NCBI GenBank assembly: GCA_026770705.1
Contig: JANJGN010000126.1
Location: 310,001-374,000 of the forward strand
Direction of reading: 5' to 3'
DNA: 64,000 bases
DNA from: Isurus oxyrinchus
Lineage: Eukaryota
Shown here: piece by piece, positions 27,373 through 27,450 of the stretch
Layout: every line of letters begins with the position of its first letter
Numbering within the stretch: position 1 is the stretch's first letter
Translations under genes and position numbers: made by a program
Notes under the pieces: model-generated
Seen by the model: only the letters and a program-made list of their open reading frames with translations
Databases searched by the model: none
Told to the model about the DNA's origin: nothing

Positions 27373-27400
27373 GGTTTTTGCATTAACAGTAACGACTGTG
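27373..27400 (-). other. D 3' 12-bp-spacer RSS
   Basis: Minus strand CACAGTC, 12-nt spacer, GCAAAAACC. Confidence 0.9.
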
Positions 27401-27422
27401 CCATCCAGTACCCCCATAGTAC
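27401..27422 (-). CDS. Single DH segment (probable germline D1-D2 fusion)
   Basis: GTACTATGGGGGTACTGGATGG between two 12-RSSs. Open in all three forward frames (VLWGYWM, YYGGTGW, TMGVLD). Confidence 0.9.
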
Positions 27423-27450
27423 CACAGTGACACAAGCCAGCACAAATGCT
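27423..27450 (-). other. D 5' 12-bp-spacer RSS
   Basis: Plus strand CACAGTG, 12-nt spacer, ACAAATGCT (weak nonamer). Confidence 0.85.

Follow-up and report, generated by a model that had tools for sequence, protein, structure and literature searches.

Excerpts from two reports describe the closest known counterparts of the locus analyzed here, a germ-line fusion of D1 to D2 in nurse shark IgNAR type III (PMC4622739) and pre-joined D segments in bamboo shark IgNAR2, 5, and 6 (PMC8692893). As in those IgNAR fusions, two D segments appear to have been joined in the germ line while V and J remain split, so that one rearrangement fewer is needed and junctional diversity is reduced. IgNAR clusters have three D segments, however, and retain one free D and three joins, whereas the cluster described here is IgM with two, and their fusion leaves a single D with a 12-bp RSS on either side and two joins. 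Expression is reported for the joined IgNAR clusters.

Partly germ-line-joined IgM clusters of elasmobranchs have been described as VD-J, VD-DJ, and VDJ forms (PMC5192425, PMC4279169, both available as excerpts). Our cluster resembles them in being a minicluster that carries an inherited V(D)J-type joint beside split sisters, several of its copies being pseudogenes. The forms covered in those excerpts all involve V, whereas here just the two D segments are joined, and, unlike them, the present joint has split relatives with near-parental D1 and D2 and can be parsed to one base. For the NS4 (kappa) light chains of the nurse shark, which are germ-line joined and show little TdT activity, the accessible part of the report infers RAG action in germ cells (PMC2193156). 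There, as here, joined and split genes are closely related and the joints are trimmed with little TdT signature, but NS4 comprises complete light-chain VJ joins from several events, whereas the present case would be one partial heavy-chain event multiplied by duplication. Heavy-chain germ-line joints have been called hard to dissect (Lee et al. 2000, in excerpt), and use of joined heavy chains in the repertoire was not detected in the horn shark, according to the passages at hand.

The configuration itself has a somatic equivalent. Nurse shark lymphocytes form V-DD-J, which shows that D1 and D2 can join first, and every somatic IgH joint of that species is different, its ends trimmed and N/P bases added (PMC2435157, in part). 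Those somatic V-DD-J joints differ from clone to clone and carry N/P bases, whereas one joint is fixed in four loci here. In the literature searched, in which the early primary papers are incompletely covered, we did not find a germ-line IgM V-DD-J; the V-DD-J described there is somatic.

A single-D IgM cluster among split relatives

The window, by which we mean the whole 64-kb stretch of DNA analyzed, carries on its minus strand a shark-type IgM cluster with the layout V(23)-(12)D(12)-(23)J-Cmu; all features given below are on that strand. A leader exon (28263-28308; ATG, 46 nt, GT donor) is followed by the VH exon (27841-28135; 295 nt; Pfam V-set, E 1.2e-6), the V 3′ RSS with its 23-bp spacer (27802-27840), a stretch homologous to the V-D1 spacers of split clusters (27451-27801), the D1 5′ RSS with a 12-bp spacer (27423-27450, heptamer at 27423-27429), the D of 22 nt (27401-27422), the D2 3′ RSS with a 12-bp spacer (27373-27400), which is identical to that of the split clusters L005 and L009, a stretch homologous to D2-J spacers (27049-27372), the J 5′ RSS with a 23-bp spacer (27010-27048), and an open JH (26962-27009; YMEYWGQGTMVTVTA) with a GT donor. 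Further along lie Cmu1 (20937-21236), Cmu2 (19683-19994), and Cmu3 (15798-16103), all open, Cmu4 with the secretory tail (14919-15310), whose best PDB matches are Ig mu constant regions, and an open TM1 exon (9763-9890). Pfam recognizes V-set and C1-set domains in the cluster. Cmu1 lies 5.7 kb from J, and the spacing of roughly 400 bp among leader, V, D, and J, together with four C1-set domains, a secretory tail with a penultimate Cys, and a TM exon, identifies an elasmobranch IgM minicluster of the layout described for nurse shark in the accessible part of PMC2435157. A long ATCT-type simple repeat occupies 22000-22740 in the J-C intron, and long CA-rich simple repeats with N stretches occupy 11100-14250, between the secretory and TM exons.

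A sequence-only reading of this DNA had noted one D between V and J with about 400 bp on each side; the distances are 418 nt from the V RSS to D and 391 nt from D to J, and the D does have the 22 nt and the 12-bp RSSs on both sides (27423-27450 and 27400-27373) that the reading gave it. A scan for RSSs with spacers of 11-13 and 22-24 bp returned 14 rows in the 64 kb, just four of them inside the V-J interval, and none of the 14 represents an additional RSS between V and J. We also looked for a second D-RSS pair and for flanks belonging to a single D type, which the reading had named as incompatible with fusion, and found neither.

A DNA search of the genome with window 26900-27900 listed 74 matches, with 40 of 138 candidates scored; among the matches listed, four were full-length and the remainder were interrupted at the D. 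Pattern searches widened the set (D2 3′ RSS at 44 places, J at 35, V end at 46). Forty-five clusters were parsed, 4 joined and 41 split, and then three more places (L072; L073, which is split; and L074, which lacks D1), giving 47 V-J clusters, of which at least four are joined, at least 42 are split, and one lacks D1, all counts being lower bounds. Split clusters have the layout V(23)-(12)D1(22)-(12)D2(12)-(23)J and measure 399-410 nt from the start of D1 to the end of D2, with one at 1052 nt. This last (L050, contig C101, 1.254-1.255 Mb) holds an insertion of about 650 nt relative to the usual interval of about 406 nt. Six D1 variants and eight D2 variants occur in the 41 split clusters. A 14-nt D2, 3 nt longer, marks the most divergent cluster group (L055-L063 and L073), and eight further split clusters, each on its own smaller contig (L018, L019, L027, L046, L048, L049, L051, and L052), form an amplified pseudogene group with a 301-nt frameshifted V throughout. 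At L072 (2475-3500; C100, 1.662 Mb), a J with its 23-RSS is 98.8% like L007, and neither V nor D is present in the 2.4 kb upstream of J within the 3.5 kb examined; by this layout, L072 is a truncated or interrupted cluster.

Comparison with these split relatives shows what the single D consists of. The sequence-only reading held that D1 had been joined to D2 with deletion of the inner RSSs and spacer, and it predicted D1 5′-flank homology on the V side, D2 3′-flank homology on the J side, and a clean loss of the spacer, all of which were borne out. Of the spacers of the split cluster L025, the flank on the V side matches the V-D1 spacer alone, at 90% across 421 nt, and the flank on the J side the D2-J spacer alone, at 91% across 391 nt; the D1-D2 spacer of L025 is matched by neither, and a blastn comparison of the window with the D1-D2 spacers from two split clusters gave no match at E ≤ 0.01. 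Measured against the split clusters, identity is 89.0-94.5% for the stretch from the V RSS to D and 85.9-93.0% for that from the D2 RSS to J. About 384 nt are missing, including both inner RSSs, and this lost pair, the D1 3′ RSS (22 bp) and the D2 5′ RSS (12 bp), fits the 12/23 rule. The coding ends are fused and both RSSs and the spacer are gone, as in other germ-line-joined segments. Judged by its flanks and halves, the single 22-nt D is a D1-D2 fusion.

Structure and origin of the joint

All but one of the 22 nt can be assigned to parental segments. A 13-nt D1 variant present in three split clusters (L025, L026, and L064) begins with the 11 nt that start the joint (27412-27422), and the 11-nt D2 of L005 and L009 ends with the 10 nt that close it (27401-27410), leaving a single unexplained G at 27411; the commonest D1, of 14 nt, requires three changes. 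The G-rich junctional bases once suggested for this joint are not needed, since the 13-nt D1 templates the G run. As for the extra G, it could be one added base, an A>G change where D1 and D2 overlapped by AT, or the trace of a GT-ending D1 joined on T. Since AT both closes the 13-nt D1 and opens D2, a join on this overlap followed by one A>G change would account exactly for the 22 nt. Coding joints made without TdT prefer short overlaps. No P nucleotides are seen in the joint.

Alternatively, the joint may combine 6 nt from the common D1 with 10 nt from D2, 6 nt having been added between them. No split cluster combines the 13-nt D1 with the exact D2 (L064 has this D1 and a D2 one base off), and a sister relation of the joined copies to L025/L026 was neither rejected nor shown by an AU test (p 0.29) whose comparison groups were chosen after FastTree trees had been viewed; the common D1 may therefore have received a longer N addition. 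By plain identity, the V-side spacer is nearer to clusters with the 14-nt D1 (94.5%) than to those with the 13-nt D1 (90.7-92.6%). A sister relation to L005/L009 was rejected in the same analysis (AU p 0.007).

We put the probability at roughly 0.9 that the fusion is a RAG-type coding joint of D1 and D2 made in the germ line, which was then inherited and duplicated; RAG action in germ cells is what the shape of the joint and the positions of its ends suggest. In a germ-line cell of an ancestor, RAG would have brought together the 22-RSS of D1 and the 12-RSS on the 5′ side of D2, and the coding ends would have been joined after the loss of 0 to 2 nt per side, with at most one base added and possibly on an AT or T overlap. 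Such minimal trimming, with no more than one added base, points to little or no TdT. The V-DD-J cluster would afterwards have been copied to at least four places, and the window copy and L004 would have decayed after duplication.

The alternative that survives best, improbable as we judge it, is a germ-line deletion made without RAG, by replication slip or end joining on an overlap of 1 to 2 nt, that happened to hit both coding ends. The AT common to the end of D1 and the start of D2 would suit such an event, and the cluster family offers an example of one in L074 (700-1140; C20, 77.086 Mb), which reads V(23)-(12)D2-J with an open V, the 5′ heptamer and the D2 3′ heptamer both being degenerate. 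Here a deletion of about 430 nt, with both breakpoints within spacers at a short shared word, took out D1 and its two RSSs, and L074 is on this evidence a second single-D cluster type, arisen by a different deletion. Its ends are distant from any heptamer, however, unlike those of the joint, both of which fall within 2 nt of the coding/heptamer borders of a 12/22 pair; two ends placed uniformly in the 1220-nt V-J interval would do so with a chance of 1.2e-5. Deletion driven by a hairpin was considered and rejected, as folding of the joined 78 nt is no stronger than that of shuffled sequences (z -0.08), a comparison that concerns the product only.

Inheritance of the joint is argued for by its presence in diverged loci. 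The identical 22 nt occur at four loci on three contigs, namely the window (C126), L002 (C38, 9.52 Mb), L003 (C38, 11.19 Mb), and L004 (C20, 76.72 Mb), which are 95.2-99.7% alike over 4 kb and retain all four RSSs. In an unrooted tree of 45 clusters (4 joined, 41 split), built on the two spacers with D excluded, the joined copies form one side of a branch with support 100/99, and they lie 5-8% from split clusters. A FastTree of V exons places L004 outside the other three, perhaps through conversion or because the signal is weak. Over 30 kb, L002 and L003 agree at 98.7% and could represent a recent duplication or haplotypes, which leaves at least three joined copies that look independent.

These relationships bear on the notion that the window records a somatic V-DD-J intermediate, carried into the assembly with lymphocyte DNA. 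Such intermediates are documented in nurse shark thymocytes and spleen (PMC2435157, in part). However, one clone could not have produced the same 22 nt in four loci that lie as much as 5% apart and have distinct lesions, somatic joints being each unique, and we regard this origin as very unlikely. The pattern fits one inherited event, later duplicated, rather than a lymphocyte rearrangement.

Just as hard to sustain is a native single-D cluster, ancestral or tetrapod-like, from which the two-D clusters would have descended. Its RSS layout equals that of mammalian IgH, in which D has 12-bp and V and J have 23-bp RSSs (PMC2435157, in part), and the cluster tree, being unrooted, would allow it. 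Yet the halves of the D match two D types and its flanks two different spacers, 42 of the 47 clusters are split, the most divergent group among them, the joined group is separated from split clusters by so little, and two D segments per cluster are the shark norm. The earlier description of the unit as a "tetrapod-like" V-D-J accordingly holds for the RSS layout, as a convergence, and does not extend beyond it. Finally, collapse of the assembly across the D1-D2 spacer, conceivable for a multi-copy family in an assembly of 5558 contigs, can be set aside almost entirely, because the joined group has private spacer states (9 and 18 alignment columns absent from six comparison groups) and a contig from public sequence bridges the joint.

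That contig, 100 nt long and without differences from the window, comes from run X1 (organism A; possibly the source of the assembly), one of four runs; no bridging contig was found among the pieces shown for runs X12, X5, and X8, searched for the joint in organism B, where coverage of X12 has holes and 83% of X5 and 61% of X8 were read. X1 (153 million letters, DNA by guess) covers 27200-27279 by a window-identical contig only, and split-type contigs dominate X5 and X8, unlike X1 at window 27200-27290. A second record of X1 holds a depth-2 contig that spans the D without gaps over window 27287-27595 with 35 differences in 309 nt, and this may be a D1-D2 join from a different cluster group, made either somatically or in the germ line, or may come from a faulty alignment. 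In a second species (organism B), contigs from two studies lie one base from the D2-J spacer of the window over 177 and 172 nt, a stretch at which the best split cluster of this genome differs at 15 positions. As far as the D2-J spacer goes, this near-identity suggests that the lineage of the joined copies is present in the second species.

Coding capacity and consequences of the fusion

The four copies differ in their integrity. In the window, the VH exon has 295 nt compared with 302 nt in open paralogs, and a 7-nt deletion near 27936 shifts the frame past CDR2 and leaves the second Cys and the YYC motif off-frame. The exon is thus not open as in a functional cluster, and the unit is unable to make a heavy chain. 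In Cmu3 the second domain Cys is replaced by Ser (YSVV, compared with YCVV in all five other clusters compared), and these two lesions mark the window copy as a pseudogene. In L004, V is frameshifted, both Cmu1 and Cmu2 contain stops, and Cmu4 has a Cys-to-Tyr change. In L003, V is open, and Cmu4 has lost 1 nt from a run of C, perhaps through an error of assembly. By sequence, L002 is intact, with leader, V, J, Cmu1 to Cmu4, tail, and TM all open.

As previously noted, the D is open in its three direct frames (VLWGYWM, YYGGTGW, and TMGVLD); inverted, one of the three frames has a stop. The observation stands and is uninformative, for D1 and D2 by themselves each lack stops in three frames, and so do 34 of 36 D1-D2 joints simulated without N bases, and we reject it as a sign of selection. 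Nor does the unchanged joint across copies qualify as such a sign, since about 1.0 change would be expected in 22 nt and P(0) is 0.37.

Most likely, the fusion is a neutral by-product of RAG leakage. In L002, and perhaps L003, the fused D would be joined to V on one side and to J on the other in keeping with the 12/23 rule, in two joins instead of three, and heavy chains from intact copies are predicted to lack one junction and to have a CDR3 core of 22 fixed nt. IgM1gj and IgNAR type III are grouped as functional germline-joined receptors of early life, a class marked by rearranged transcripts enriched in neonates. We speculate, while thinking it unlikely, that L002, together with L003 if its frameshift is an assembly error, is a working two-step V-DD-J IgM locus that supplies a fixed aromatic/glycine core for CDR3 in early life and was retained when two species diverged; it would then be an IgM counterpart to IgNAR type III and a datable record of RAG acting without TdT in shark germ cells.

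Partial germ-line joins have long been known in cartilaginous fish, so the event itself is unsurprising, and the fusion is uninformative about the origin of the tetrapod V-D-J layout. Its value lies in resolution, as near-parental D1 and D2 segments in sister clusters explain 21 of the 22 nt and thereby support cutting by RAG with little or no TdT. Moreover, the existence of an intact copy makes it testable whether partly joined IgM clusters enter the repertoire.
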